A stretch of 64,000 bases of DNA from Planctomycetota bacterium (GTDB lineage Bacteria > Planctomycetota > UBA8108 > UBA1146 > JAJFFE01): contig JAJFFE010000145.1 in assembly GCA_021776775.1 (NCBI GenBank), positions 30,884 to 94,883 on the forward strand, given 5' to 3'. Made by a program: the position numbers and the translations under genes. Every line of letters begins with the position of its first letter. Within the stretch, counting starts at the first letter, position 1. The notes below the pieces were generated by a model, which ran no database searches, was not told where the DNA came from, and was given only the letters and a program-made list of their open reading frames with translations. Positions 4,360 through 36,482 of this stretch are shown here, piece by piece.

Positions 4360-4650
4360 GGGCACATCATGGCGTGGCTCGAACACCAGTGGGTTGGGGA
4401 TGGTCACGTCGATGGCTCGCCACCGACTATGAGGCACGGGAATGGGGTTGTTCGCCGGGTTGCGGGTTGGCAAACAAGCACGCCGTGAGAACGAGGGACG
4501 AGCGCATCGAGGCGTGAACGATTCTGTTCCGGGCGAGGGGCACCGGGGATGCCCGACTCCGTTGGGTGTCGGTTGTGATACGTGGATGTTGCTAGGGGCT
4601 ATGTGATCCCTGACGGGGATGCCGATGGGCCATCTCGTCCGGACGGGATG
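4360..4650 (-). repeat. ~285-bp dispersed repeat, copy 1 (inverted relative to copy 2)
   Basis: It is near-identical along its length to the reverse complement of 29178-29459. It ends with GGGCACATCATGGCGTGGCTCGAACACC. Confidence 0.8.
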
Positions 4651-4989
4651 CGCGGCCGCAATGTTCCTCTGTCTTGGGCTCGCTTTTGTGCGATGAATCG
4701 GAACGGCAGGCCGGCCCTGACGCGGCTGGCTCGGCGGACGCAGATGGGGTTGCCCCAGCAAAACAAATGTCGAGCGATACAGTATCGCGCAGCCCGGGGA
4801 CCAGTGACCAACCGATCCACGCGAATCCCGTCCGGGCGAGGTCTACGTCACCGACTAGTGATGTAGACCGCAGTCTCAGCAAGACCCCGCCTGCGAAGCT
4901 GCGCTGTCGGGTAGGTACAGTCCCACAGTTCGCGTCACATCGTTTGCACGATGTCGCATTCGGCGGCGCAACCAAACGACGCCTCATGT

Positions 4990-5270
4990 TCGCCCCTCAG
5001 ATACCGCACACAGCCCGGTACGGATCACGCCGCCCAGCGAACATTGCTCATCGCCCAACACGCAGCCGCGAGCATCGGGCATCCTCGCTGCCCCTCGCCC
5101 CGAACCGACACGTTCGCGCTCCGATGCGCCCGTCCCTCGTTCTCAGCCGTGCTTGTTTGCCAAACCGCAACCCGGCGACCGACCTCACTCCCGTGCCTCA
5201 TAGTCGGTGGCGAGCCAGCGACTCGACCATCCCCAACCCACTGGTGTTCGAGCCACGCCACGATGTGCCC
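4990..5270 (+). repeat. ~285-bp dispersed repeat, copy 2 (more diverged in the 5' third)
   Basis: 5078-5270 aligns almost base-for-base with 29270-29459. It shares the terminal GGTGTTCGAGCCACGCCACGATGTGCCC. Confidence 0.75.
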
Positions 5271-19064: not shown

Positions 19065-21218
19065 CTAGCGGGGTTGATACATCGAGCGGCGAATCCGGTA
19101 GTTGTACGATCGGGGCGCGCCGTCCACTACGGACTGGTACGCCTCGTGGGCGCGCTTCAGATCTTCTTCTCCGATATCCTGGGCTCGAGCCCACGCCACG
19201 GCCCTCGAGCCAAACTCGGCAAGCTCTTCATCGGAGTCGAGATCGAAGACTTCGCGGAACACGCTCTTGAACGATTGAGACTCGTCGCGATGCACGAGCC
19301 GCGCTTCGTACTCGGCCAACTTTGCAGAGTGTTCGCGAGACAAGTACTGATAGTAGAGCCAGACGCTTGTGTACCCCTTGAACGACTTGCCACCGTCAGA
19401 GATCTCTTCGTACTGTCGGTCGACGAGATCATCCAAGCTCAAGACGCCGTGTTCTCGAAACTGCCTCAACCATGATTCGTTGGTGGGGTTCACGAACTGA
19501 CCGAACCTGATCTGTCCGGCGAAATCGACGGGGTACTCGTGATACGTCGTGAAGCCGTCGGACTGAAACGGTGGCACATTGCCGTCGAGAAGAAGGTTGT
19601 TGACGTGATGGCCGATCTCGTGAGGAAGCGCTCCCCATAGAGTCTCCGTCGCGGGCATGGGCTTGCCGTCCTGACCGAGCTGGCCGTCCCAGAACAATAC
19701 GATTTGCTTGCGAGAAGAACCCTCGCTCATAGCGTTACTCTCGATGCCAGAGTTCTGAAGATGTTCCGGGCGACAGCCACTCCAGAAACCGCCCGAACTG
19801 CGCGCTATCCGGTGCCCACTGCGATCACACCACTCTTCGAACTTCTTCTGCGAGCGCAGCATGAGGAGGACGGCCTTCTTTTCCTTCGGCCGACTGCCCG
19901 GCAGCTCACGACTCAACCGCTCTGCGAGCTGATTTCGATGACCGTACTCGCGGATGTACGCTGCGAGAACTCTCTCCGCAGTTCGTGCAATCAGAGCCGA
20001 CTCACCGGGACCGACCTGAGACAAGACGACGAAGTGTGCGCTGTCGTAACGGCTAAACTCACCACTGCCGTAGGTGACCTTCGCTCCTTCCGCCGGCGTC
20101 ACGAGCTCTTGGCTACTGATCCCGAGAATCCTCGCCTTCTTGGCATCGACGGCGATGACACTCGACCCCGTGTTCACGCCGAGCGCTTCGATCTGCTCTT
20201 CGAACTCCTTCATGTCGACCGGTTGCAGCCCTTCGTGCTTCTTCCCCTTCGCCTCCGCCTTCTTTGCCTTCTCGTTTGCTATGGCGTTGACGAAACCGGC
20301 GACCGTCTTGGTCATTTCGATTCTCTGGACCGCACGCTTCCAGATATCTTGCGCAGCACTTTTCAGATGCTCGGTCCCCTTCGCGTGCGCCGCCGTGACG
20401 TCCTCGCCCAAAAGGCGCACGCGGTCGTCCGCGATCGCGATCGCGGCTGCGACGAGCGTCGTCTGGTCCGGGAACGTGAACCGGAGCTCCGTTCCGTCGC
20501 GAACCACTCGAGTCGCGGACTTGCCCAGAGACACAATCAGAGAGTTACAGAAGCGGGTGTAGGCGTTGTTGACCAACGAATCGACGGTATTGTCGTGCGC
20601 TGCTTCCAGACTCTCCCCGTCGATGACATCGCCCCAGAGTAGCTGGTTGTAGCGCAACGAATACGCCTCCATCTGGACGCGCATGCGACAACGGTGACCG
20701 TAGTAAGCCAAGTCCTTGTACGTGACCTTGCCGACTTTGACTTGCCCCGAGCCCAGGTGCTGAGAGCTGATGTTCAGGTGTTGCACCGCTGCCGAAATGA
20801 CAACGTCGACATCGCTGTACTGGTCGGCGATCTGTCGGAGTCGCTCGGGGCTCGGCTCGAGCAGAGCATCTTCTCCGTCCAAGACGACCACGTCTTCGTA
20901 GACCCCCGCTTCGCGAAGCGTCTGGATGAGAACGTCCTGCAGCGCGCCCGCCGCAGACTTCCCGAAGTACGCTCCGTCGCTAGTCCACGTCGGCGCGTGA
21001 AACGGTAGCGAGCGATCGTCGCGGAACGGGACGATGCCGACTTTTCCGCTGAAGATCGGGGTCGTGCCCTCCGGGCGGGCCAACTCGGCCGTCGCTCTGA
21101 GCGTAATCCGCTGCGCCGAACTGCAGCCGACGGCGGCCGCTGCCAACGCGATGATTAACGGGAACAGACGGCTGACGCTTGAATGCGAACTCAGCATGAT
21201 CATCTCCACTGCAATCAT
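19065..21218 (-). CDS. lipoprotein with C-terminal zincin-like HExxH (HEIGHHV) domain, putative metalloprotease
   Basis: Lipobox AAAAVGCSS. HEIGHHVNN motif near residue 540. Confidence 0.55.
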   Translation of the reverse strand: MIAVEMIMLSSHSSVSRLFPLIIALAAAAVGCSSAQRITLRATAELARPEGTTPIFSGKVGIVPFRDDRSLPFHAPTWTSDGAYFGKSAAGALQDVLIQTLREAGVYEDVVVLDGEDALLEPSPERLRQIADQYSDVDVVISAAVQHLNISSQHLGSGQVKVGKVTYKDLAYYGHRCRMRVQMEAYSLRYNQLLWGDVIDGESLEAAHDNTVDSLVNNAYTRFCNSLIVSLGKSATRVVRDGTELRFTFPDQTTLVAAAIAIADDRVRLLGEDVTAAHAKGTEHLKSAAQDIWKRAVQRIEMTKTVAGFVNAIANEKAKKAEAKGKKHEGLQPVDMKEFEEQIEALGVNTGSSVIAVDAKKARILGISSQELVTPAEGAKVTYGSGEFSRYDSAHFVVLSQVGPGESALIARTAERVLAAYIREYGHRNQLAERLSRELPGSRPKEKKAVLLMLRSQKKFEEWCDRSGHRIARSSGGFWSGCRPEHLQNSGIESNAMSEGSSRKQIVLFWDGQLGQDGKPMPATETLWGALPHEIGHHVNNLLLDGNVPPFQSDGFTTYHEYPVDFAGQIRFGQFVNPTNESWLRQFREHGVLSLDDLVDRQYEEISDGGKSFKGYTSVWLYYQYLSREHSAKLAEYEARLVHRDESQSFKSVFREVFDLDSDEELAEFGSRAVAWARAQDIGEEDLKRAHEAYQSVVDGAPRSYNYRIRRSMYQPR

Positions 21219-23667: not shown

Positions 23668-26600
23668 ATGATCGCTCCCCAACCTCCGAACGCTGACGCC
23701 GTGTCCGCGACCCCGTCGGTTTCGACGGGCGGCGCGACCGCTCCATCGAGACTCCATCTCGCGTTTTGCATGCGGCATTCGGGCTACTTACGACTTTACG
23801 AGTCTTTCCTCAGGGAACTCGCCGCACGCGGTCACACCGTTCATCTCGTGATCCGACAGTTCGACGCACTCTACGACGAGCGCGTGCTCGGAGCGCTCGA
23901 AGAAGAACTGGTGCCACACCTGACTTGGGAAGTACTCGACGAAACCCGTCTCGAGCCGGGTCGGCTGCTGCTGCGACTGCTGCGTTGCATGCAGGACTAC
24001 CTGCGTTACTTAGCCCCGGCGTACCGAACCGCGCACTCGCTGCGCGCGCGCGCAGCAACCCGCCTCCCACGAGTCGCGCGCGCTGTTTGCAACGTCGTCG
24101 GTCGATCGCAAGCGTTGAGCTGGGGGCTGATTCGACTCCTGCGCGGCGTCGACCAATGTGTCGGCGCCCCGACCTCACTCGTCGAATGGCTCGACGCCCG
24201 TCAACCCGACGCGCTGATCATCACACCGCTCGTCGACTTCGGGGCGACTCAGTTGCCGTGGATGAAGGCAGCGCGAGTCGCCAGCACACCGACCATTCTC
24301 GCCGTCGCGAGTTGGGACAATCTGACCAACAAGGGGTTGGTCCAGCTCGAACCCGACGGCGTCCTCTTGTGGAACCGCTTTCAAGAAAAGGAAGCGCGAA
24401 CCTTCCACCGGTTGACGCGGACACGCATTGCCACGACCGGTGCGCAAGTCTTCGATCCATGGTTCGCCATGAAGCCGTCGACGACCGAAACGGAGTTCCG
24501 CCAACGGGTGGGGCTCGAGCCCGATCGCAACCACCTGCTGTACCTGTGCTCTTCGCCTTTCATCGCCCCGGACGAGGTCTCTTTCGTGAAGCGTTGGCTC
24601 GACGCCTTGAGAAACTCGGATGCTCTCGGCGCGAAGACGGTCGGCGTGTTGATTCGGCCGCACCCACAGAATGCCACGCAGTGGGACGCGTTCGATGAAA
24701 CCGAGTACCCGAACGTCGCCGTTCACCCCCGCGGCGGGGCGACCCCGATTCACACCTCGACGAGAAACGACTTCTTCGACTCGATGGCGCACGCGCAAGC
24801 GGTCATCGGCATCAATACGAGCGCTATGATCGAAGCGGGCATCCTCGACAAGCCGGTGTTCACCATTCAAGACGACGACTTCGTGGCCACGCAGGAGGGC
24901 ACGCTTCACTACCACTACCTGGTCGACGGCGGTCTGCTGACAGTCGCCAACGACCTGCCGGAGCATCTCGACCAACTTCGGGGCACCTTGATCGGGGCCG
25001 ATCCCCAAGCGGAAGCGCGTCGTTCGTTCGTCGCGGAGTTCATTCGTCCGCACGGCTGGGAAACGCCGGCCGCCGAGGTATTGACCGACAGCGTGGAATC
25101 GATGACGGCCGAGCTGCGCGCTCATCCGCGAACGCCCAGCATCGGCGAACGAGTCGCCGCGCTCCCAAGTGGCGCGTCGAAAGCGCTCGCTCGCCACCCC
25201 CGCGCCGCGCTGTTGTTGACCGCGTTGGCGTTGCCATTCCTGACGCTCGGCCGCTGGATCGCCAGTTGGGGCAACAGTCGACGAGTGCTCCATCTTCTGC
25301 GCTGCGGACATCAACGCGACGCGGCGGCGATCCCCGATCCGTTGCTGTTCGGCGATCTCGTGCGAGCGCCCGGACGCAAGGTTTCCGTGCTGCTCAATGG
25401 ATCGATTGCTGCCCGCTGCCTCGGCGTGGCCCTGACGCCGTTGTTGCTCGTCGCGTTTTTCTTGGTGATCGTCTACGGCGCGGCCGTGGCCATCATCGAT
25501 CTCCCCTTCATGCTGGGGTACCCGCTGTTTCTGCTCTGCACTCGCTACCGCTCGCAACCACGAACATTGATCCGCCTCCTGATCGTCGGTCCGACCAAAG
25601 CGCGCACCAGCGCGAGCAAGCTGGACGCGATCCGTGATCCGATTCAGCTGCTCGACGCCATGGACCAACGCTGCTACGGAACGGCGCCGATATCAGCGGT
25701 GCTCAACAAGCTGCGCGCCAGCGATCGACCGGTCGTCATCGGACCGTGGATGGGTGAAGTCGGCTTCGAAGTTCTCTACTGGATTCCGTTTGTCTCATGG
25801 CTCTTGCGCGCGGCGAAGGTCGACAGCGACCGAGTTCATATCGCTTCGCGAGGCGGAACCGCGGAGTGGTATCAGGCGATCGGCGGCCGATACGAAGACC
25901 TGCTTGGCCACCACACGGTCGAAGAGTTCCGCGCGTTTCAGGACCGGCGGGTCCGCGAGATCGGACACCAAAAGCAGTCGAAGATCACCGGGGCTGATCG
26001 CTCGGCGCTGGCCCCTGTTCTCGACGCTTGGGATGTCCAGCAGTACGAGTTGGTGCATCCATCGATCATGTACGGCGTCTTCCGCCACTTCTGGTTCGGC
26101 GAGATGCCGCTACGCGCAATCGGCTTGCTGTGCGATTTCAAACGTCTCGAACACCACCGACCGGAGTGGAGCGTCGTTTCCGACTTGCCCGAACAATACG
26201 TCGCCATGAAGTTCTACTTCTCCGAGAGCTTCCCGGACACGTCCGAAACTCGTGCGTTCGTGCGCGACGTTCTGGAGACCGTGGCTCGACACAACAAGGT
26301 CGTGCTCCTCAACACGCAGTTGGAACTCGACGAGCACAAGGAACTGAGCGACGGAATACCCGAGAGTGTCTTGGTTCTGTCGAAGGAGATGCTTCCGCAC
26401 AACAACCTCGAGGTTCAAACCCAGGTGATCGCGGGGGCCAGTGCGTTCATCGGAACGTACGGCGGGTTCTCTTACCTCGCGCCCTTCTACGGAGTTCCGA
26501 GCTTCGCGTTCCATGCCAACGAAGACGGATTCGTGCCGGAGCATGTCGACACTGCTCACCTGGCGTTTCGAACGGCAAACGAACATGCCGCTCTTGCCGC

Positions 26601-26724
26601 GAACTTCACTATGTTCAGCACGCAACAGTGGAAAATCCTAGCCAGCTTCTTCGGTAGCGCCGCCGCCGCGAGCAAAGAAGAATGGCGACGACTTCCGAAT
26701 GACGTTTCCGCTCCGAAGCCTTAG
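23668..26724 (+). CDS. 1018-aa fusion of a TagF-like phosphotransferase/GT-B domain and a second GT-B-like domain (polysaccharide biosynthesis)
   Basis: The N-half is homologous to 14151..15632. The C-half is homologous to 13142..14122. A hydrophobic linker (LLLVAFFLVIVYGAAVAII) lies between the halves. Confidence 0.7.
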   Translation: MIAPQPPNADAVSATPSVSTGGATAPSRLHLAFCMRHSGYLRLYESFLRELAARGHTVHLVIRQFDALYDERVLGALEEELVPHLTWEVLDETRLEPGRLLLRLLRCMQDYLRYLAPAYRTAHSLRARAATRLPRVARAVCNVVGRSQALSWGLIRLLRGVDQCVGAPTSLVEWLDARQPDALIITPLVDFGATQLPWMKAARVASTPTILAVASWDNLTNKGLVQLEPDGVLLWNRFQEKEARTFHRLTRTRIATTGAQVFDPWFAMKPSTTETEFRQRVGLEPDRNHLLYLCSSPFIAPDEVSFVKRWLDALRNSDALGAKTVGVLIRPHPQNATQWDAFDETEYPNVAVHPRGGATPIHTSTRNDFFDSMAHAQAVIGINTSAMIEAGILDKPVFTIQDDDFVATQEGTLHYHYLVDGGLLTVANDLPEHLDQLRGTLIGADPQAEARRSFVAEFIRPHGWETPAAEVLTDSVESMTAELRAHPRTPSIGERVAALPSGASKALARHPRAALLLTALALPFLTLGRWIASWGNSRRVLHLLRCGHQRDAAAIPDPLLFGDLVRAPGRKVSVLLNGSIAARCLGVALTPLLLVAFFLVIVYGAAVAIIDLPFMLGYPLFLLCTRYRSQPRTLIRLLIVGPTKARTSASKLDAIRDPIQLLDAMDQRCYGTAPISAVLNKLRASDRPVVIGPWMGEVGFEVLYWIPFVSWLLRAAKVDSDRVHIASRGGTAEWYQAIGGRYEDLLGHHTVEEFRAFQDRRVREIGHQKQSKITGADRSALAPVLDAWDVQQYELVHPSIMYGVFRHFWFGEMPLRAIGLLCDFKRLEHHRPEWSVVSDLPEQYVAMKFYFSESFPDTSETRAFVRDVLETVARHNKVVLLNTQLELDEHKELSDGIPESVLVLSKEMLPHNNLEVQTQVIAGASAFIGTYGGFSYLAPFYGVPSFAFHANEDGFVPEHVDTAHLAFRTANEHAALAANFTMFSTQQWKILASFFGSAAAASKEEWRRLPNDVSAPKP

Positions 26725-26905: not shown

Positions 26906-27181
26906 CTACACGTGACAAGTTAACGTTGAACAGAAGTCGTGTAACGCCCCGACCAGGTTCTTCGCGTGGAGGCTTCTGACAGGCGGGTGGGGCGCATCGT
27001 GGCGTGGCTCGAACACCAAGTGCACCTGAAATGCCCGAATCTCCTCCGGCCCCATCCCCGAAGGACAACGCCCAAAGAACCGCGCAAACGCCGCAACACA
27101 CTCCACGTACCGACGAACCGTCACCTTCGAGTACTTCCGAAGCTGCATGTCCTCGATCATCCGCTGACGAAGCTGAGTCAT
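26906..27181 (-). pseudogene. intI: truncated integron-integrase-like tyrosine recombinase gene (intI-like). Only the N-terminal ~55 codons are intact.
   Basis: Strong RBS AAGGAG, 7 nt, then ATG. MTQLRQRMIEDMQLRKYSKVTVRRYVECVAAFARFFGRCPSGMGPEEIRAFQVHL matches the IntI N-terminal SAM-like pattern (R.YS..T..YV...F..F...P..MG..EI.AF..HL). The reading frame then enters the 28-bp repeat end (VFEPRHDAP...) and stops. Confidence 0.6.
26989..27018 (-). repeat. 28-bp terminal fragment of the ~285-bp repeat, located exactly at the intI truncation junction
   Basis: GGGCGCATCGTGGCGTGGCTCGAACACC is shared with the ends of repeat copies 1 to 3. Confidence 0.7.
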
Positions 27182-27426
27182 ACCATGACTCCTTTCCGCT
27201 TCGTCTGTCGGACAGATCCATCGAGTTGTATACTTGCGAGCGTAAACGGATGGTCAAGAGGGCGCCGCCCCAGAGCCTAGCGCGCAGCGCTTGAGTTCAA
27301 CTAGTCGCCGCAGCAGACCAAGGGCAGTCTTCCTTCTTCACCACCGGGTGTCACCGGGTCGCATCCGCCCGTACAATCCAAGCTTTCCCTAATGCTGCCC
27401 CTCGCAGCTGAGCTTCGACGTTAGGG
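27182..27426 (+). promoter_or_regulatory. attI-like / promoter region between intI start and first cassette core
   Basis: Perfect 13-bp palindrome TCTGTCGGACAGA at 27204-27216, just upstream of the intI start. TACAAT -10-like box at 27372-27377 faces the cassettes. First R' core GTTAGGG at 27420-27426. Confidence 0.4.
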
Positions 27427-27438
27427 GGACAACCGCAA

Positions 27439-27816
27439 GTGAGAAGGCGTTCGCACAGTATCGTACTACTCGCTCTCCTCGTCCCCGTGCTGCTCTGGTC
27501 GACGTGGCGCGTGGGTTTTCACATCTCTTACGAACCAACGCTGAATTTCCTTGTTTATCCCGAAACCGCTAACGGCGCCGCATTCGTAAAGCGCGTATAC
27601 CTGCCGCGCTTCGAGACGATGTACGACTATGGGCTGGACTGGATTGGCCGCGGGTGCCCGTTCTCAGAGTTCGAGCGTCACATCGACCCTGGCACCAAGA
27701 TCACGTACTATCCGCCAGACGGCTGTTTGTCGTTTGACGTCGTCTACGACAGAGTTGGCCTACTCGACAGAATATCGACCCTCGAGTATGCGCATATCGA
27801 CCTATCGCCACCCTAA
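27439..27816 (+). CDS. cassette ORF 1: small secreted or membrane-anchored hypothetical protein
   Basis: GTG start 12 nt after the GTTAGGG core with a GGGGGA Shine-Dalgarno. N-terminal signal or TM segment. The stop TAA is embedded in CCCTAAC. Confidence 0.5.
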   Translation: MRRRSHSIVLLALLVPVLLWSTWRVGFHISYEPTLNFLVYPETANGAAFVKRVYLPRFETMYDYGLDWIGRGCPFSEFERHIDPGTKITYYPPDGCLSFDVVYDRVGLLDRISTLEYAHIDLSPP

Positions 27817-27938
27817 CTCGTCGCTACCGACCAACGGGGCAGTAGCTTGTGCCACGTCGCGGTCACCCGCACAATGTCGCTTCGTCGAATCCAGTTTCAT
27901 CATCCGCTGCCCCCGGCAGCTGAGCTTCAACGTTGGAC
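27811..27938 (+). other. attC-like site 1 (128 bp): R'' CCCTAAC ... R' G|TTGGAC
   Basis: R'' is the exact complement of the upstream R' GTTAGGG. The 3' half (GCTGCCCCCGGCAGCTGAGCTTCAAC) is conserved with the other cassette junctions. Confidence 0.55.
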
Positions 27939-27945
27939 GGATCGA

Positions 27946-28362
27946 GTGGAAGTCACTCTCCCCGGGATATACATATCCGAGAACTTCGGGGTTGTGCGAA
28001 GCCTGTCGGAGCTCAATACCGGAAACGCGCTGAGCGTCAAAAGCGGCTTCTTTCGGGATCTGGAGTTCTACGACAACGCGGGCAACTCGTGGCGTCCGGC
28101 GAAAGTCGAAGTTCACCCGCGCCCGACATGGTGGCGGGTGCTCTTGAACCTTCGTTGCGAGGTCGAAATCGAGTGGCAACTTGTGGGTCCCCTCGTACCG
28201 TCTCAAGTCGCTGAACGCATTTGCGAGCTGATCGACCAGGACCCGGACGACCTATACGATCAGTTTGTCACCCACGAGGAGTTGAAGGCCCTGGTGCGCG
28301 CAGCACAGGATCCAGCGGCGCTCGTACGGGTGGTTGCGACTCTTGGCGACCCGGAGGAATGA
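27946..28362 (+). CDS. cassette ORF 2: hypothetical cytoplasmic protein (~139 aa)
   Basis: GTG 27946 with a GGACGG Shine-Dalgarno 5 nt upstream. The track ORF 27847 over-extends through attC1. Confidence 0.45.
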   Translation: MEVTLPGIYISENFGVVRSLSELNTGNALSVKSGFFRDLEFYDNAGNSWRPAKVEVHPRPTWWRVLLNLRCEVEIEWQLVGPLVPSQVAERICELIDQDPDDLYDQFVTHEELKALVRAAQDPAALVRVVATLGDPEE

Positions 28363-28366
28363 GACC

Positions 28367-28497
28367 GTCCAACACAGATGGCTTCTATACGAGATCGCCA
28401 AGCAATTGACGACACGACAAGGCCGCACCGACGTTGCCGAACGTGACAACGCAGACGGATAGAAGGTCGGCGGTCTCAGGGTAGAAGCGAGTTGGAC
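28367..28497 (+). other. attC-like site 2 (131 bp): R'' GTCCAAC (5 nt after stop) ... R' GTTGGAC
   Basis: Imperfect inverted repeat: GTCCAAC-acagatg-GCTTCTA-tac-GAGATCGCC ... GGCGGTCTC-aggg-TAGAAGC-ga-GTTGGAC. It has asymmetric unpaired bases, as attC bottom-strand hairpins do. Confidence 0.6.
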
Positions 28498-28634
28498 TCT
28501 GCCGCGGCGCGGTGTTCGGCTATGGAGTTTCTATTGAACGGAACTCTTGGTCGAACGCTTCGAAACGCCCGACGAGGTGGCGGCCAGGGTCGAGATGCGT
28601 TTGCGCATCGGGGAACGCCACTCACTTGTTCCAT

Positions 28635-29057
28635 TCATCCCTCGATCGGGATTCGCGTGGACCGGTGGTTCGTTGAGCCCCGTGTTGTTGGGTACAGGGT
28701 CACTGGATGTCGTGCCGCGTGATACTGAGGTCGCGGCTCGCGTACTCCGGTTGGTTGATCGATGGGTCCTGCCGACTTACGCGACGCGGCGATCTTTGAA
28801 CGCATGAACTCAGTTCCGAACTCCCGTTCCGCGTACCAAGCGTTGTGTGTTGGGCAGAGGGCTCGCAGGTTGATCTCGTCATTCGAGCCGTCCTTGCTGA
28901 ACGGAACCAAGTGATCGATCTGAAGGCCTGTTCGCACGCCACAGCGATGCTGATCACGGCCGACGAATTCGCACCGCTGCCCGGCTTGGTGGAGCACTCG
29001 CTCACGTGTTTCACTTGGAATGTATCGGGATCGTTCCTTGGCCTTTGCAGAGTCCAA
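28635..29057 (-). CDS. HNH endonuclease (inside cassette X, opposite orientation)
   Basis: CEFVGRDQHRC...LQIDHLVPFSKDGSNDEINLRALCPTHN is an HNH/Cys4 motif. Confidence 0.7.
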   Translation of the reverse strand: MDSAKAKERSRYIPSETRERVLHQAGQRCEFVGRDQHRCGVRTGLQIDHLVPFSKDGSNDEINLRALCPTHNAWYAEREFGTEFMRSKIAASRKSAGPIDQPTGVREPRPQYHAARHPVTLYPTTRGSTNHRSTRIPIEG

Positions 29058-29177
29058 GCCGTCAGAACTGGGCGAAACCTCGATGAAAACCCTGTCAAAC
29101 GAAACACGACAAAGTTCTAAAATTCATCGCGCGAAGCTGAATCCAAAACAGACGAACCACCGCGACCGCCAAACCTC

Positions 29178-29459
29178 GCCCGGACGGGGTGCCCATCCGC
29201 ATCTCCGACAGGGATCACATAGCCCCAGCCAACATCCACATATCCCACCGACACCCAACGGAGTCGGGCCCACCCGCTGCCCCTCGCCTGGAACAGAATG
29301 GTTCACGCCCCGATGCGCCCGTCCCTCGTTCACACCCGTACTTGTTTGCCAACCCGCGACCCGGCGACCAACGCCACTCCCGTCCCTCATAGTCGGTGGC
29401 GAGCCATCGACTCGACCATCCCCAACCCACTGGTGTTCGAGCCACGCCACGATGCGCCC
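29178..29459 (+). repeat. ~285-bp dispersed repeat, copy 3 (inside cassette X)
   Basis: Aligns with the reverse complement of 4360-4650 and with 4990-5270. Confidence 0.8.
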
Positions 29460-29652
29460 GTCACCTGCTTCAGGTCGCATGCGACCGTTTGCAGTGTTGG
29501 CACCGCCGCGTCGAACAAGAGCGTGTGCATCGACTTCGGATTGCCGAGCGCGATGGGACGCAACTGTTCCGGCAACGTGAACAGCGCGTGGGAGTCAGGC
29601 ATCATGAAATCACGTCGCGCGGCACTACCGCGCAGCGGTTGGGTTCAACTCG

Positions 29653-29772
29653 GCGCGGCAGCCGACAAAGGGCGTCTGCTCTCTTCAGTGCCAGGTGCTC
29701 TCGGCCCACATCCTCGGTTACAATCCACGCTCTAACGAATGCTGCCCCGGCAGCTGATCTTCAACGTTAGGC
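29653..29772 (+). other. attC-like site of cassette X (tentative): R'' GTTCAAC ... R' G|TTAGGC
   Basis: R'' is 6/7 complementary to the R' (GTTGGAC) that opens cassette X. The conserved 3' half is GCTGCCCCGGCAGCTGATCTTCAAC. Confidence 0.35.
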
Positions 29773-29776
29773 GGAG

Positions 29777-30220
29777 ATGAGCGAGGAGCGTGGGAAACAA
29801 GACAAGCCTGGGTGGACTGGGTCGTATGACCACAACAATGGTCGAACCGCGGCCACGGTCGAGCTCCTGTGTGAGTCCACCCAACTGGCAGCGGACTCTC
29901 GCTTTCAGGACTTCGCCAATCAGCTTGCCCAGCACGTGGCCGCCCTTGATCCCATCGCGCTGTCCACTGACGACATTCCCGAGGCTGTGTCCCGAATCCG
30001 CAGCGAGCTCTCTCGCACGTATGCGGACAAGCCGGGTGAGATTCGGGAGAAGCTTGTCGCAGCAAAGGCCCAGCTCTACGCAACCAACTCGTGCCTTCTC
30101 GACCAGAAGTGGGTGTTCGAGGACGAGCGCAGTGTTCGTGAAGTGTTGGAGCATTACGGCCAACGCTTCGGGGAACAGCTCTCTGTTGGGGCGTTCTCTC
30201 GAACAGAACGGTCCGCCTAA
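29777..30220 (+). CDS. cassette ORF 3: truncated EF-Ts paralog (core/dimerisation domain only, no N-terminal EF-Tu-binding UBA-like domain)
   Basis: Colinear match to the EF-Ts core: TAATVELLCESTQLAADSRFQDFANQLAQHVAA...KPGEIREKLVAAKAQ...LLDQKWVFEDERSVREVLEHYGQRFGEQLSVGAFSRTE. The stop TAA is inside GCCTAAC, the complement of the upstream GTTAGGC. Confidence 0.65.
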   Translation: MSEERGKQDKPGWTGSYDHNNGRTAATVELLCESTQLAADSRFQDFANQLAQHVAALDPIALSTDDIPEAVSRIRSELSRTYADKPGEIREKLVAAKAQLYATNSCLLDQKWVFEDERSVREVLEHYGQRFGEQLSVGAFSRTERSA

Positions 30221-30399
30221 CTAACCGGTCGCCGCAACAGCCACGGGTCGGTTACCTCTCCCCGCGGTCGGTTTCACCGTTTCGACGTTGGATCGCGCCG
30301 CCGGCTCGCTACGTTCACGTTGCTCGGTAACCGCGCCGGCAGCCGCGTGTCCACTTTTCCTCGGTGAGGTCCGCGCTTTGGACAGTCCGCTCGAGTCAG

Positions 30400-30801
30400 T
30401 CAGTTGGTGAAGCTTCCCTCGAAGACGATGGGGTACTCCGCGGCGTGGCCCGCCTCGAACTTCACCTCGCCGGACAGTCCCGCGAGTTCGCCGTAGCCCG
30501 AGTCGGCAATCACGTCCCACACCGAGTTCACGACCCCCTCGTGAAAGCTCCCGGTGTGACGAAAGACAAACCCTCCGCTCTTACCGTTGAGCGATCCCTT
30601 GAACTGCTCGACACCGACGAACTCCGCGTGCTCGGCGTTGACGTACACCATGAGGTAGTCGACATCGCCGGTGCCATCGAGCCCTCCCGAGTACGTCTTA
30701 CTAACAGACGCTTTGGTAACGCGACGATCCTTGTCCGGGGCTCCGGACACTTCCTCCTCCCATGAAGCGATCACAAAGGTCGACTCGATCTTTAAGGACA
30801 T
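30400..30801 (-). CDS. DUF3224 domain protein
   Basis: ~133 aa. YLMVYVNAEHAEFVGVEQFKGSLNGKSGGFVFRHTGSF fits the DUF3224 pattern. Confidence 0.55.
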   Translation of the reverse strand: MSLKIESTFVIASWEEEVSGAPDKDRRVTKASVSKTYSGGLDGTGDVDYLMVYVNAEHAEFVGVEQFKGSLNGKSGGFVFRHTGSFHEGVVNSVWDVIADSGYGELAGLSGEVKFEAGHAAEYPIVFEGSFTN

Positions 30802-30811
30802 GACCGTGGAC

Positions 30812-31171
30812 TCACTTCTTGTAACGGGGTTGGTACAACTGAACGCGAAGATCGCCGGGCATCTTGAAGTACGTCGCTAGCCCGTAGCCCATATCTTGAA
30901 CTGCGTCCGTGAACTCGACGCCGCGTTCCTTCATCTCCGCCATCGTCGCTTCGACATCGTCACAGTAGAACGAAATATCGTGCGTGCCGTTGGGCCGACC
31001 TTCTTTGCCCGACTCGTCCGAGGGGTGGACGCCCATGTCTGCTTCAGGCATGTCGAAGATCAACCACCCGCCACCGACATCCGTCGCGGAGAAACCCAGC
31101 TTGTCACGGAGAAACTCACGGAGCGCCTCGGCTTTCGACGAGTAGAACATCGTGTGTACGCCACGAATCAT
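30812..31171 (-). CDS. VOC (glyoxalase/bleomycin-resistance) family protein
   Basis: Short βαβββ module: FYSSKAEALREFLRDKLGF...GTHDISFYCDDVEAT. Confidence 0.6.
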   Translation of the reverse strand: MIRGVHTMFYSSKAEALREFLRDKLGFSATDVGGGWLIFDMPEADMGVHPSDESGKEGRPNGTHDISFYCDDVEATMAEMKERGVEFTDAVQDMGYGLATYFKMPGDLRVQLYQPRYKK

Positions 31172-31374
31172 GGCAGTGCCCTTTCAACTCGTTGGCCGGC
31201 TGCGGCCAAGAGAGGTGGGCGATTGTCGTTCGAGGTCGCCGAGGCGTCTAGTCACGAAAAGTTGAATCGGTCCATCGGCGGCGTGACGCGCCGATAGAGT
31301 CTGCGCTAGGACTAGCGTATCATCGCAGCACGACTCACGGCCACGAACTGACCTCTCTCGAGTAGCAACGCGAA

Positions 31375-33405
31375 GTGTCCATGTCTGAATTGTTCGACCC
31401 TGATCTGACGGAGCCTTCTCTCGAATGGAGAGATGGCGCCCCCTTGTCGACCGAGTTTGACGATGTGTATTTCTCCAACAGCGGCGGACCGGAGGAAACA
31501 CGACACGTGTTTCTCACCGGCAACGGCTTGCCGCAGCGATGGAGCGGCAGAACCCACTTCGTAATCGGCGAGACCGGGTTCGGAACCGGGCTCAACTTCA
31601 TCGAGACGTGGCGGGCTTGGCGGTCGGATCCCGAGAGCTGCACTCGACTTCATTTTCTTTCGGTGGAGAAGCACCCGATCAGTCGGGAGTTGCTGAGTCG
31701 CGCCCTTCGCGCGCATCCTGAGCGCGAGCTGGTGGACGACCTCATTGCAAAGTATCCGGTTCGCTGCCCCGGCTTTCACCGGGTGGAGTTCGAGTCCGGT
31801 CGGGTGGTCTTGACGCTGCTGTTCGGCGACGTGCTCACCATGCTGAGTCGAATCGGCAACGGCGCAGGGAGAACGGTCGACGCGTGGTTTCTGGACGGGT
31901 TCACTCCTTCGCGCAATCCCGAGATGTGGTCGATCGACGTGTTTCGCGAGATCGCTCGCCTGTCACGTACGGGCGCAAGTTTCGCCACGTTTACCTCGGC
32001 GGGTTTCGTGCGTCGCGGACTCGAGCAAGTCGGGTTCGATGTCAGGAAGTGCAAGGGGTTTCGCCACAAGCGGGAGATGGCGCACGGAGAGTTCAAGACG
32101 GTGTCCGGTTGCGATGAATCGTCAAAGCCGTGGCACCGGTGGCCGGCGGCGCCGACCGCAACGCAAGCACTGGTCGTCGGCGGCGGCTTGGCCGGCACCG
32201 CGACCGCTCGCGCTCTCAGTCTCCGGGGGTTTGACGTCACGCTATTGGAACGTCACGACGACATAGCGACCCAAGCGTCGGGAAGTCCGGCGGGTATCTA
32301 TCACGCCGACCTCATGCGTGAGTGCACGCCGCGCGAACGACTCTTCACGGGGGCGGTCGGCTTCACGGCCCGTCGGCTGCAGAGCTACTTCGATGGTACA
32401 TTGGACGTCGCCGGAGCGCCGTGTGGGGCGGTGCACCCCGTGACCTCCGCGAAGCGCGCGCAACACCACCGCGACGTGACGGAACGACGCGCCGTCTTTC
32501 CCGAATTCGTAGAGTGGCTATCGCCGGACGAGGCGAGCGATGTCGCCGGGCTTGCCATCGAACAGCCGGCACTCTTCTACCCGCAAGCGGGCTGGGTATG
32601 CCCGGCCGATGTGTGCCGTGCAAACATCGAGTCGGGACACGAGGTTCGCGTGCGTACCGGGACCCACGTGGCCGGGCTCGAACGGGTAGGCGATCGTTGG
32701 GTGGCGACGAACGACGAAGGCGACGTTGTCGGAGAAGCTCCGATCGTGGTGATTGCGACCGCCGGCGACGCGCTTCACCTTCCGATCGTCAACTGGCTTC
32801 CGTTGCGACAACTGCGTGGGCAGATCACTCGCGTCGAAGCGACCGCGGCCAGCGACCGCCTACGTTCAGTCGTCTACTACGAAGGGTATGCCACGCCGAG
32901 CCACGACGGATTTCACACACTGGGCGCCACGTTCGATCACGACTCGGTCGACGTCACGGTCCGCGACGAAGACCACGTCGCCAATCTCGACCGCCTCTGC
33001 GAAGGTTTCCCGGCACTTCATTCCTCGCTGGCGACACGGTCGGCACGTCGCGTGGGACGCGCAGCGCTACGAGCCGTCTGCCCCGATCACCTTCCCATGA
33101 TTGGACCGGTCCCCGACGAAGCACGGTTCCGCCGCCAGTACGACGGCTTGCGGTTCGGGCGATCGATCGACGAGCAGTCGCCGGCGCCGGTTCTGCCCGG
33201 GCTGTACGTGTCGGTCGGTCACGGCTCCCGCGGGATTGTCTCGAGCCAGTTCGGCGCGGAGATCATCGCCAGCCAGATTGCCGGCGACCCCATGCCGACG
33301 GAGCGGGGAATCGTCGACGCCCTGACTCCGGGCCGTTTCCTGGTTCGCTCGCTGGCGCGCGGCGGCGGCGACGGCCACGCCGAGGCTGACGAAGACGACG
33401 GCTAA
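31375..33405 (+). CDS. mnmC: bifunctional tRNA 5-methylaminomethyl-2-thiouridine biosynthesis protein MnmC (methyltransferase + FAD oxidase)
   Basis: N-terminal EFDDVYFSNSGG...WFLDGFTP (MnmC1/DUF752). C-terminal FAD-binding VVGGGLAGTATA and DAO-type oxidase. Confidence 0.8.
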   Translation: MSMSELFDPDLTEPSLEWRDGAPLSTEFDDVYFSNSGGPEETRHVFLTGNGLPQRWSGRTHFVIGETGFGTGLNFIETWRAWRSDPESCTRLHFLSVEKHPISRELLSRALRAHPERELVDDLIAKYPVRCPGFHRVEFESGRVVLTLLFGDVLTMLSRIGNGAGRTVDAWFLDGFTPSRNPEMWSIDVFREIARLSRTGASFATFTSAGFVRRGLEQVGFDVRKCKGFRHKREMAHGEFKTVSGCDESSKPWHRWPAAPTATQALVVGGGLAGTATARALSLRGFDVTLLERHDDIATQASGSPAGIYHADLMRECTPRERLFTGAVGFTARRLQSYFDGTLDVAGAPCGAVHPVTSAKRAQHHRDVTERRAVFPEFVEWLSPDEASDVAGLAIEQPALFYPQAGWVCPADVCRANIESGHEVRVRTGTHVAGLERVGDRWVATNDEGDVVGEAPIVVIATAGDALHLPIVNWLPLRQLRGQITRVEATAASDRLRSVVYYEGYATPSHDGFHTLGATFDHDSVDVTVRDEDHVANLDRLCEGFPALHSSLATRSARRVGRAALRAVCPDHLPMIGPVPDEARFRRQYDGLRFGRSIDEQSPAPVLPGLYVSVGHGSRGIVSSQFGAEIIASQIAGDPMPTERGIVDALTPGRFLVRSLARGGGDGHAEADEDDG

Positions 33406-33623
33406 CCTGCGCCAAGGAGGCTTCTTAGAAGATTGCGCCAGCCGCGCTTCACATCGGACGGGTGCCATCCCACTCCAGGTGAACGATTCCCACGTTTCGG
33501 GGGTCGTCTCGGCGTGCGAAGATGCACGATATACCGATATCGAGGCGGGATCGGCATCCCGCGGCGACGCTTCACGTGCCGACCTGGCGCGCGGGGGTTT
33601 CGGGCTCAAATCGGAGTGGTGGC

Positions 33624-36482
33624 ATGTCTCGACTCAATGCGCGACCGGTGCGCGAAATCCCGGACACCGAATTGATCGCGCGAACGCTAGCGGGTGATCG
33701 TGACGCGTACGGCGACCTCGTCGGCCGTTACCTCGACACGAGCTACGCCGTGGCGTACGGACTGACCGGCTGCCGTTCGGACAGCGACGACTTGGTTCAG
33801 GAGGCGTTCCTCGGAGCGTTCCAGGGACTCGGTCGGTTGCAGTCGCCCACTAAGTTTGGTGCCTGGCTGACCGGTATCCTTCGACGGCTAGATGCGAATC
33901 GCCGCCGCACCGCTCGACGACGTCGCGAAGTCATGCGCGATTACTCCGACCACCGACCGTCGGTGAGCGATGTCGATGGGCCCGTCGACGAACACGATGA
34001 AGAGTTGTGGCGTTCGATCCATGGTCTCCCGGATGAACTTCGCGTTCCGTTGGTGCTGTTTTACTTCGAAGGAGAGTCGACCGCGGCGGTCGCGGAGCGT
34101 CTCAATTTGGAACCGGCGACGGCCCGCAAGCGAGTCCAACTCGCCAGAGATCGGCTGCGCGAACGGTTGCATACGGATCCGCGGGCGCCGCTCGCTCGAC
34201 CCGAACTCAAGCGACTGCGTCCGTCTCGCGCGTTGCGGACAGCGATCGCGTTGACGATTGCAGCCGCCCCGTTCGGTGCCGAAGCGTCGGCCGCCGTGGA
34301 CCCGTCGCTGTTCGCCGACCGATCGCTAGGAGGTTGGCAGGAACCGTTCGGCGGTGCCTTCCCGATCAAGGTCGCGGCGGCGGCTCTGTTCGCGATTGGT
34401 TTGACGTTACTCATCGTCGCCGTGCGCGAAGACTCCGCCGTCCCGTTACCGCAACCGCAGTCGGCACGATCACCCGTTGCAAGTCGCGACGCGACGCCCG
34501 AACGTCAGTCGACGGCGGCCGACAACAGCGTGAGCGCATGGCAGCCGGCTCCCGTACAAGCAGCGCACGCGCCGACCACCCCGCCCCCGTCGACCCCCAA
34601 TGTCACTCGCACCGCCCAAATCCGCGGGACCGTTCGCATGGCAGACGGCTCGCCATTGGTCTGCCGACAGGTCTTCCTGGGGGAAAGCCGACAACCGTGG
34701 GCACGAGCGGAGTCCGCGTCGCTCGACGAGTCTGGGACGTTCCATTTCAACGTCGACAGTGAGGAAGACCGCTGGATCTACCTGCTGCTCGACCACGCGC
34801 TGGTCTGTCCGCGCGATTCGTGGGTACGACCGAGCTTCTCGCTGGAGAAGCAGCTAGACATTGTGGTCGAACCCGGCGTCACGCTGTCCGGCGTGATCGT
34901 GGACCCCGACGGTCATCCGGTTCGTCGAGCGCGCGTCACGTTGGAAACGTCGGAGCCCAATCAGCAGGGCGAAGCGCTCATCGAAACGAACCGGGACGGG
35001 GAGTTCGAAATCCCCCACGTCCCGGTCGGTGAGTACCAGATGTCGATATCACACGCCCAGCACTCTCGGCATCTCGAGCGAATCCAACTTCGCGGCGACG
35101 TCCGCCGAAACTGGACGCTGCAGCCTCCGCGAGTGTTGAAGTTGACGATCGCGGGACTGCCGGCCGAATCCCGAGAGTCGGTGATCCGCTTCTCGTTGAA
35201 GCAGCGCGACGCCGGGCTCGCGGCCGACGTGCTAGCGCACCGGGAAGAGCTACTGTTTCACGGAACACCCGACTCGACCGGCACGATGACGCTCCAGGCG
35301 CCGCCGCCCGGCGTGTGGACCGGCACCTTCTACAAGACTCTCCCGAAGCGCCGTTTCGAGTTGGTGATTCCTGAATCGGGGGACGAGGTCCACGCGACCG
35401 TCGACTTGGCCGTCGGCGCAGTGTTGAGCGGTTTGGTTCGAGTTGTGGGAGGCAGCGTATTGACCGAAGCGGTACTCGTTGACGTCTCTGGTCGAGGCGG
35501 ACGCGGCGCCCAACTGCGCACCCCGATCGAAGTGTTGACGAGCTCTTCGACGCCGATCCTCAAGTACACCCAAACCGGAGTTCCCGCTGGCGGCTACCTG
35601 GCCGGAGTCAAACAGTGGATCGCCGGCCACCCCGCAAACACGGACCAGCCCGAGTGGATCTTCTACGGCACCGAACGACTGCAACTCGACGGATCCGAAT
35701 CTCACACGCTCGACCTGACGCTACCGACAACCCAGCCGGTTCATGTCACGCTGTCCCCCGAGAGTTCGACGAGATCCACCTCGTTCACCGCGTTGACGAT
35801 TACGCCGGTCGCGGTGCCGGGATTGTTCACGTTCACCTTCGAAGACGGTGCGGTGGAACCGGCGGCACACATCGGGGCGCTGGGGCTGGTAGCGAGCCAT
35901 CGCGTTGCGGTGTTCGATCATCTTCCCCCTGGGCGCTACCAAGTGTCCGCGATGATCGACGGCGTTCGCACCCGGCCGACGCAGATCAACGTCGGCGACG
36001 CTGGGCAAGCACCGGTGATCGTGGAACTCGCTTTTCCGCAGTTCGTGCGCGTCGAGCTTTCCGTCGAGAGCACGTACCTGCCGAGCCGACTGCTGGTCCA
36101 ATGCCCGCCAGCTCCGACCTCGGATCGATTCTCGAGTTCCCGCGCTTGGTTCGAGGAGTACTCGAGATGGCTCGCTGGCGCGCTGGTCCGCGATCGCGTG
36201 GATCCGGAGTTCTCGAGTAGCGCAACCGTTCATCACTTCGGACGCCCGTACAACGACTTCGTCGTAGGGTGGCACTACTGGCGGTCGTTAGTGGTCCGCG
36301 ATGTGAAGTTCGAGGGCAATCTTCACGTCGGATCGAGCGGGCGCGCAACCTTGGAGTTTCCAGCCCACGCCCCGGACGACGCGATCGTGCGCATTCAGGC
36401 GCCCGGGTTCGACGCGATCGAGATGCGGGTGCGCGAACTGCTCGAGTACCAGGACTCACCCGTGCCACTCTTCCTCAAGTAG
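33624..36482 (+). CDS. ECF sigma-70 factor fused to a TM helix and a ~700-aa extracytoplasmic domain with carboxypeptidase-regulatory-like repeats
   Basis: GGAG Shine-Dalgarno then ATG 33624. Region 2 LVQEAFLGAF and region 4 EGESTAAVAERLNLEPATARKRVQLARDRLR. TM segment IKVAAAALFAIGLTLLIVAV. The track ORF 33522 over-extends at the 5' end. Confidence 0.7.
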   Translation: MSRLNARPVREIPDTELIARTLAGDRDAYGDLVGRYLDTSYAVAYGLTGCRSDSDDLVQEAFLGAFQGLGRLQSPTKFGAWLTGILRRLDANRRRTARRRREVMRDYSDHRPSVSDVDGPVDEHDEELWRSIHGLPDELRVPLVLFYFEGESTAAVAERLNLEPATARKRVQLARDRLRERLHTDPRAPLARPELKRLRPSRALRTAIALTIAAAPFGAEASAAVDPSLFADRSLGGWQEPFGGAFPIKVAAAALFAIGLTLLIVAVREDSAVPLPQPQSARSPVASRDATPERQSTAADNSVSAWQPAPVQAAHAPTTPPPSTPNVTRTAQIRGTVRMADGSPLVCRQVFLGESRQPWARAESASLDESGTFHFNVDSEEDRWIYLLLDHALVCPRDSWVRPSFSLEKQLDIVVEPGVTLSGVIVDPDGHPVRRARVTLETSEPNQQGEALIETNRDGEFEIPHVPVGEYQMSISHAQHSRHLERIQLRGDVRRNWTLQPPRVLKLTIAGLPAESRESVIRFSLKQRDAGLAADVLAHREELLFHGTPDSTGTMTLQAPPPGVWTGTFYKTLPKRRFELVIPESGDEVHATVDLAVGAVLSGLVRVVGGSVLTEAVLVDVSGRGGRGAQLRTPIEVLTSSSTPILKYTQTGVPAGGYLAGVKQWIAGHPANTDQPEWIFYGTERLQLDGSESHTLDLTLPTTQPVHVTLSPESSTRSTSFTALTITPVAVPGLFTFTFEDGAVEPAAHIGALGLVASHRVAVFDHLPPGRYQVSAMIDGVRTRPTQINVGDAGQAPVIVELAFPQFVRVELSVESTYLPSRLLVQCPPAPTSDRFSSSRAWFEEYSRWLAGALVRDRVDPEFSSSATVHHFGRPYNDFVVGWHYWRSLVVRDVKFEGNLHVGSSGRATLEFPAHAPDDAIVRIQAPGFDAIEMRVRELLEYQDSPVPLFLK

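Follow-up and report, generated by a model that had tools for sequence, protein, structure and literature searches.

A stand-alone EF-Ts core domain without the TDFV motif in a cassette-like array of a Planctomycetota bacterium

An open reading frame (ORF) composed of the complete core domain of elongation factor EF-Ts, and of nothing else, is described here in a Planctomycetota bacterium. It is located on the plus strand, at positions 29777-30220 of a 64,000-nucleotide stretch of contig JAJFFE010000145.1 (GenBank assembly GCA_021776775.1, positions 30,884 to 94,883), hereafter called the window, and is part of a cassette-like array. The product is a true EF-Ts homologue in which Ser-Thr-Gln-Leu (STQL) takes the place of the TDFV motif. 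Judging from its alignment with other members of the family, it is almost certainly a folded but exchange-dead EF-Ts core, which makes it neither an orthodox EF-Ts nor merely a short one.

An EF-Ts core devoid of the TDFV motif

The ORF runs over 147 codons from an ATG start to a TAA stop. Residues 12-142 of its product matched positions 80-199 (of 204) of the Pfam profile EF_TS (PF00889) with 69.3 bits (cutoff 27; E=4.3e-19), and the assignment to the EF-Ts core made in the original prediction was thereby confirmed. The top match among the PDB sequences was Thermus thermophilus EF-Ts (1aip_C, residues 52-194 of 196, E=1.7e-16); the crystallised Thermus "dimerization domain" (1tfe_A) was recovered with E=3.4e-16. 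ORF residues 6-145 aligned with residues 52-194 of the Thermus factor at about 31 % identity, and the motifs G..Y.H, KP..I.EK, LL.Q and GE were all kept. The tsf equivalog model TIGR00116 was matched over profile positions 153-270 (of 293) only, with 49.3 bits, below its cutoff of 104.05.

The AlphaFold2 model, computed with 52 homologues in the alignment, displayed a mean predicted local distance difference test (pLDDT) score of 93.5; as it was steered by the EF-Ts alignment, this value indicates compatibility with the fold and is no independent proof of it. When compared with Foldseek, the model matched 1tfe with template modelling (TM) scores of 0.90/0.93 and a root-mean-square deviation of 1.4 Å, and 1aip_C with E=3e-13. 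Its secondary structures follow the order beta1-beta2 hairpin, helices, coiled-coil hairpin and beta3, the coiled-coil hairpin being formed by helices 68-81 and 87-105.

An in-frame TAG located just ahead of the ATG (Table 1) precludes any N-terminal extension of the ORF. Neither a UBA-like N-terminal segment nor a second tsf gene was detected in the whole window by tblastn with full-length EF-Ts proteins, so that the lack of the UBA-like domain, already predicted, also held; the reading of the ORF as a truncated paralogue was likewise supported. The base composition of the ORF was coding-like (GC content of 0.66/0.45/0.70 at the first, second and third codon positions), and both the GC content by codon position and the codon adaptation index resembled those of host genes. 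The same gene was encountered on an independent Logan assembly contig, which matched window positions 29554-35519 at 99.98 %. No sigma-70-like promoter and no terminator were found around the ORF.

The TDFV motif (Asp80/Phe81 in Escherichia coli) is the wedge that enters the nucleotide site of EF-Tu, and it is strictly conserved (PMC3747624); it forms the contact with EF-Tu domain I (PMC9529903). The ORF was aligned here with 52 short-form EF-Ts, and columns were considered conserved when at least 70 % of the sequences agreed. At the TDFV columns, Asp was displayed by 51 of the 52 homologues and Phe by 47, while the Thr and Gln of the ORF were found in none. The ORF matched none of the four TDFV positions, at least three of which were kept by 48 of the 52 homologues. 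Outside the motif it kept 25 of 30 conserved positions, close to the homologue mean of 26.0 (standard deviation (sd) 1.8), and 18 of the 52 homologues kept no more than that. Among the 35 conserved columns of the full alignment, ten deviated in the ORF, including all four of TDFV (hypergeometric p=0.004). At the variable columns the ORF was the most divergent sequence, with 28 consensus matches out of 99 (family mean 42.6, minimum 32). The pattern C(E/Q)(S/T)..A.D, put forward earlier as a sign of colinearity with EF-Ts, passes over the replacement of TDFV by STQL.

On this alignment, the catalytic wedge appears specifically gone and the fold-defining residues intact. As the latter are kept at the level of genuine EF-Ts, the ORF has probably been maintained as a folded protein and was not drifting. 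No nucleotide-exchange activity would be expected, because the N-terminal domain and TDFV, the two elements that act on EF-Tu domain I according to the established EF-Ts mechanism, are both absent.

Two possible sources of the ORF were compared using profile hidden Markov models (HMMs) of 48 short-form cores and of 65 long-form subdomain-C segments, with five two-fold cross-validations. The ORF scored 124.7 bits with the short-core HMM versus 112.7 bits with the subdomain-C HMM. The cross-validated difference was about +13 for the ORF, +23 (sd 11) for held-out short cores and -14 (sd 13) for held-out subdomain-C segments, and the likelihood ratio was about 6 in favour of the short-core class. 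In addition, the N-terminal SEERGKQDKPG of the ORF aligned with the basic linker found past the UBA-like domain in short-form EF-Ts (such as AEKRTGKQTSEG of P0030) and did not align with the end of a preceding subdomain. The more likely ancestor is a TDFV-bearing short-form EF-Ts of the Thermus type, which would have lost its N-terminal domain and then its TDFV wedge. With such an ancestor, the change to STQL would therefore be secondary.

The Thermus "dimerization domain" (1tfe; chains C/D of 1aip) has the same extent, order of secondary structures and fold as the ORF product. It is, however, a proteolytic product of the full-length factor, whereas the ORF is a free-standing gene. Further differences reside in STQL for TDFV, in more polar strands and in Ser141, which is found opposite Cys190. 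Subdomain C of the long-form E. coli factor, together with its coiled-coil (1efu_B, residues ~140-263), also displays the fold of the ORF (TM 0.72) and is likewise without a functional TDFV. The ORF differs from it by its higher short-core score and by the post-UBA linker at its N-terminus; to our knowledge, subdomain C never stands alone in known EF-Ts.

The protein collection searched here held about 15 billion proteins; its word index covered 5.8 billion clusters, and HMMER was run over 1.84 billion representatives. The word index returned the ORF protein alone, the 90 % cluster of which has a single member. Exhaustive HMMER gave 1893 matches at E<=0.001, the best of them being 30-38 % identical; E<=1e-30 was reached by two only, namely the query and, at 30 % identity, a tandem EF-Ts of eukaryote type. 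The best 150 of these 1893 matches were all ordinary or tandem EF-Ts, a few short entries keeping TDFV and looking like gene fragments, and none of the 150 displayed the architecture of the ORF. Two of the collected proteins (P0007 and P0061, ~190-210 residues) were also without a UBA-like N-terminus and consisted of the tail of one EF-Ts core followed by a second, complete core whose wedge is degenerate (SDRV, SDEL). Possibly, they are pieces of tandem-core EF-Ts, or else additional EF-Ts-like proteins devoid of catalytic activity.

Scanning the genome collection uncovered only two canonical tsf genes, both distant relatives located in rpsB-tsf operons (rpsB-tsf-frr or rpsB-tsf-pyrH; loci L002 and L003). 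Viral contigs contained no relatives of the ORF, phage records and plasmids nothing beyond ordinary tsf genes, and PHROGs no match. The sole PADLOC match was to DndF (14 bits, E=0.0039) and was taken as noise. A literature search retrieved no paper on cassette-borne or truncated EF-Ts paralogues.

The cassette-like array and its surroundings

The array that holds the ORF (Table 1) is most aptly called a partly scrambled cassette cluster without integrase. In all five of its consecutive units, the six bases past the G↓TT junction were the reverse complement of the ...AAC box closing that unit, the start/closing pairs being TTGAAC/GTTCAA, TTAGGG/CCCTAA, TTGGAC/GTCCAA, TTGGAC/GTCCAA and TTAGGC/GCCTAA. 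The EF-Ts unit starts with G↓TTAGGC (29766-29772) and ends with GCCTAAC (30215-30221). These limits, and the same complementarity in the four other units, support the proposal that the gene is borne on a cassette-like unit.

Table 1. Coordinates of the EF-Ts ORF, of the array units and of nearby element fragments (positions in the window)
Feature	Position	Strand	Basis or remark
Stand-alone EF-Ts core domain, 147 aa	29777-30220	+	Pfam, PDB sequence search, AlphaFold2, Foldseek
Ser-Thr-Gln-Leu (codons 34-37) in place of TDFV wedge	29876-29887	+	Alignment with 52 short-form EF-Ts cores
In-frame TAG within GTTAGGC box	29768-29770	+	Sequence; two codons (6 nt) ahead of ATG
Upstream attC-like repeat "c" (GTTCAAC ... 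GTTAGGC)	29643-29772	+	Repeat family; putative crossover G↓TT at 29766/29767, 10 nt ahead of ATG
Downstream attC-like repeat "d" (GCCTAAC ... GTTGGAT)	30215-30293	+	ORF TAA inside GCCTAAC box, complement of start TTAGGC
Cassette-like array holding the ORF	26925-31267		Last repeat 31184-31267; end just before mnmC
Unit boxes R'/R''	26925 / 27295		GTTGAAC / GTTCAAC
Unit boxes R'/R''	27421 / 27811		GTTAGGG / CCCTAAC
Unit boxes R'/R''	27932 / 28367		GTTGGAC / GTCCAAC
Unit boxes R'/R''	28491 / 29052		GTTGGAC / GTCCAAG
EF-Ts unit boxes R'/R''	29766 / 30215		GTTAGGC / GCCTAAC
Tyrosine recombinase N-terminal fragment, SAM-like domain only, 64 aa	26990-27181	-	Pfam Phage_int_SAM_4, E=4e-12
IS91-family transposase fragment	29460-29605	-	NCBIfam NF033538, E=7.7e-8, profile positions 89-131/356; just upstream of repeat "c"

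Like the cassettes of integrons and of clusters of attC sites lacking integron-integrases (CALIN), the EF-Ts unit contains a single promoterless ORF between ...AAC and GTT... repeats, with the stop codon inside the closing box; most units of the array hold one small ORF. Unlike integron cassettes, it has no integron integrase within 64 kb, and its flanking repeats give only weak predicted attC hairpins.

Repeats of ~130 nt at 27295-27427, 27811-27938 and 29643-29772 shared sequence, including GCAGCTGA(G/T)CTTC(A/G)ACGTT(A/G)G, for which three matches were counted versus 0.01 expected by chance. Shorter relatives were located at 30215-30293 and 31184-31267. The 3' part of repeat "c" folds as a short hairpin. 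End-to-end attC pairing was weak at both sites flanking the ORF (constrained fold versus minimum free energy (MFE): -13.9 versus -18.1 kcal/mol for "c", -9.7 versus -13.0 kcal/mol for "d"), and z-scores indicated that these repeats fold no better than shuffled sequence. Site 28367-28497 (GTCCAAC ... GTTGGAC) forms a canonical end-to-end attC hairpin of -21.3 kcal/mol, its MFE fold being the constrained one; its sequence is unrelated to that of the 130-nt repeats flanking the other cassettes. The conserved 3' attC motif, run against metagenomes, gave seven matches, all by chance in unrelated sequence, and no related array. Rfam families were not matched anywhere in the window.

As had been stated originally, the ORF is not located in an rpsB-tsf-pyrH context: small cassette ORFs are found upstream, and a DUF3224 gene (-), a glyoxalase-family gene (-) and mnmC (+) downstream. 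The DUF3224 and glyoxalase/VOC-family genes (30400-31171, minus strand) lie between the attC-like repeats 30215-30293 and 31184-31267 and apparently constitute a two-gene cassette next to mnmC. Two upstream cassette ORFs on the plus strand (27439-27816, 125 aa; 27847-28362, 171 aa) were matched by none of the Pfam, NCBIfam, PADLOC and PHROGs profiles, and the 125-aa one was also a singleton among the 15 billion proteins searched. An HNH endonuclease of 140 aa that stands alone (28635-29057, minus strand) is reverse-oriented inside a cassette-like unit and displays weak similarity to IscB over its HNH domain only. Upstream of the array, two large ORFs (23668-26724, plus strand, 1018 aa; 19065-21218, minus strand, 717 aa) had no Pfam domain. 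Planctomycete-type extracytoplasmic function (ECF) sigma, DUF1583 and 3-keto-disaccharide hydrolase domains were encountered elsewhere in the window and suggest a planctomycete host.

The recombinase fragment of Table 1 scored 21 bits with the integron-integrase model (cutoff 265). Its relatives were all fragments of 63-107 residues, one of which adjoins an IS91 transposase, and an interpretation as truncated IntI was dropped on account of these relatives. The fragment (MTQLRQRMIEDMQLR...) belongs to a recurrent metagenome family of ORFs of 63-107 aa consisting of the SAM-like domain only (loci L011-L013). In L013, a member of this family has an IS91 transposase on one side and, on the other, several small ParE, BrnT and glyoxalase genes in a row that resemble a cassette array.

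A non-coding element resembling a miniature inverted-repeat transposable element (MITE), 911 bp long (4360-5270), separates a DUF2161 gene from lexA. It displays inward-facing terminal inverted repeats of ~300 nt, which start with GGGCRCATCGTGGCGTGGCTCGAACACCAGTGGG, and had no Rfam match. A half copy at ~29120-29459 (minus strand) borders on the IS91 fragment that precedes the EF-Ts cassette; it is also found directly upstream of the HNH endonuclease gene, on the same strand. The outer 29 nt of the element recur at 26990-27018 (plus strand), and the core 17-mer was counted eight times versus 0.58 expected. A perfect 29-nt inverted repeat (26990-27018/29431-29459) encloses 2.4 kb in which three cassettes and the recombinase fragment are located. 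These 29 nt are both the terminus of the MITE-like element and the coding sequence of the last residues of the recombinase fragment, LVFEPRHDAP. This repeat suggests inversion or recombination between copies of the element; neither orientation restores an intact gene.

Possible roles of the free-standing core

The interpretation tentatively favoured here, which still falls short of being probable, is that of a folded, exchange-dead EF-Ts core acting only by binding, i.e. a non-productive mimic of EF-Ts with a weak or conditional effect. Such a protein, if active, would work by binding and not by catalysis, and its surface facing EF-Tu domain III and its coiled-coil hairpin are partly retained. 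Its effect would probably be weak or conditional because of the promoterless position of the ORF in the array.

The strands of the three-stranded sheet, from which the beta-sandwich dimer of Thermus EF-Ts is built, are present in the model of the ORF. In the alignment with Thermus EF-Ts, in which Cys190 forms a disulfide, Cys190 aligned with Ser141 of the ORF, F192 with T143 and R188 with A139. Jiang et al. reportedly placed Cys190 in the dimer interface in 1996. Twelve ORF residues (T14, D18, T27, A39, D40, Q52, A96, A98, F114, H126, A139 and T143) were displayed by none of the 52 homologues.

Contacts with EF-Tu were mapped through the alignment on an E. coli EF-Ts sequence. Its numbering reproduces D80, F81, I125 and G126 of PMC3747624, where six subdomain-C residues are listed as contacting EF-Tu domain III and where subdomain C is said to bind domain III without catalysing exchange. 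Three of the six have conserved counterparts in the ORF (H147=H19, A174=A56 and V234=V113).

Several observations weigh against binding by such a mimic, or against its maintenance. The other three domain III contacts are changed (I151 to T24, K166 to N48 and M170 to Q52). The three-stranded sheet, with a mean Kyte-Doolittle value of 0.05, was the least hydrophobic of 50 homologues (family mean 0.76, minimum 0.20), and the strand substitutions I14T, I18D, L27T, R139A and F143T introduced residues found in none of the 52 homologues. Together with the change of Cys190 to Ser141, this left the "dimerisation-competent" character attributed to the fragment by the original prediction without confirmation. 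To judge from these residues, the canonical dimer and the binding of EF-Tu may both have been lost. The structural model may owe its shape in part to the alignment that steered it. No orthologues of the ORF were found in the protein collection, where it is a single sequence; no intact integron integrase or IntI-like ORF was detected in the 64-kb window, and the array is broken up by IS91 and MITE-like debris. Finally, the TDFV equivalents of long-form subdomain C are themselves degenerate (CQKEETASS, CESAKTSSN) and resemble the CESTQLAAD of the ORF. An origin of the ORF from subdomain C was considered less likely on account of the profile scores and of the linker alignment, at a likelihood ratio of only about 6.

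Much of this would also suit a functionless relic, the main rival explanation, which is possible but rather unlikely. The ORF would then be a 5'-truncated piece of tsf, maybe from the second core of an EF-Ts of the tandem or long form, too recent to have been broken. No other member of its kind was found among about 15 billion proteins, it has no detected promoter, and it belongs to a decaying, integrase-less array in which pieces of IS91 and of a recombinase occur beside a MITE-like insertion; it is the most divergent sequence at the variable columns (28/99), and its CESTQLAAD could simply be the naturally degenerate equivalent of TDFV in subdomain C. The conserved fold positions, however, stand at the normal level of the family (25/30 versus 26.0), unlike what uniform neutral decay would leave. 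The ATG is located exactly at the domain boundary, 10 nt past the junction, and the whole domain is spanned up to a stop inside the attC box. The N-terminus corresponds to the post-UBA linker of short-form EF-Ts and includes no end of a preceding subdomain. The profile scores favour a TDFV-bearing short-form ancestor, and the four adjacent substitutions would therefore be derived and represent a focused loss of TDFV.

Reuse of the EF-Ts fold for an unrelated job, with a new partner and no link to EF-Tu or EF-Ts, is improbable. It would account for the many surface residues absent from all 52 homologues and for an unusually polar sheet around a conserved fold core. No positive sign of another partner was seen, however; the cassette consists of a single gene without co-transcribed partner, and none of the signature motifs (G..Y.H, KP..I.EK, LL.Q, GE) is missing. 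There is a similarly small chance that the EF-Ts core was domesticated as a mobile dead binding module. Without promoting exchange, it would then act as a decoy or brake, either through domain III of EF-Tu or through the capture of toxins or phage proteins dependent on the coiled-coil.

Less probable still is a decoy or immunity-like factor in the strict sense, a dead core that would soak up toxins or phage proteins requiring EF-Ts or EF-Tu:EF-Ts and spare nucleotide exchange. Small accessory or defence genes are frequently carried by cassette arrays, and KP..I.EK and LL.Q are kept in the ORF, as is the coiled-coil hairpin. Candidate targets would be CdiA-CT tRNases and Qbeta-type replicases, which depend on that hairpin of EF-Ts; they provide no more than a precedent. 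The tRNases CdiA-CT(NC101) and CdiA-CT(EC869) need EF-Tu and EF-Ts (PMC5737660; PMC9071432), and mutations in the coiled-coil of EF-Ts confer resistance to CdiA-CT NC101 (PMC5737660). Nothing at the locus speaks for such a role, or for the titration of EF-Ts or EF-Tu also proposed originally: it contains no toxin, contact-dependent inhibition (CDI), immunity, defence or phage gene; PHROGs gave no match, PADLOC noise only, and viral, phage and plasmid sequences no relatives but ordinary tsf. Moreover, the ORF was seen once, whereas recurrence would be expected of a useful defence gene.

An EF-Ts that is orthodox though short, perhaps the only one of the organism and a working exchange factor, is extremely improbable in spite of the significant EF_TS domain and the intact ORF, given the missing N-terminal domain and the upstream stop, the absence of TDFV, the TIGR00116 score (49.3 versus 104.05), an architecture not encountered among the best 150 of 1893 matches, and the absence of rpsB, pyrH or frr beside the ORF, unlike in L002 and L003.

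EF-Ts is normally a single-copy, operon-bound housekeeping factor. The ORF described here represents a known domain in an architecture that is new and was encountered once, and its present value is that of a documented oddity, which calls for caution against annotating it as tsf. A core that stands alone, its fold kept but both catalytic contacts lost, would be a naturally occurring EF-Ts of the "binding-only" type. Provided that it has a function, it might reveal ways in which the EF-Tu cycle is tuned or shielded by cells or mobile elements, and it could serve directly as a probe for toxins that depend on EF-Ts.

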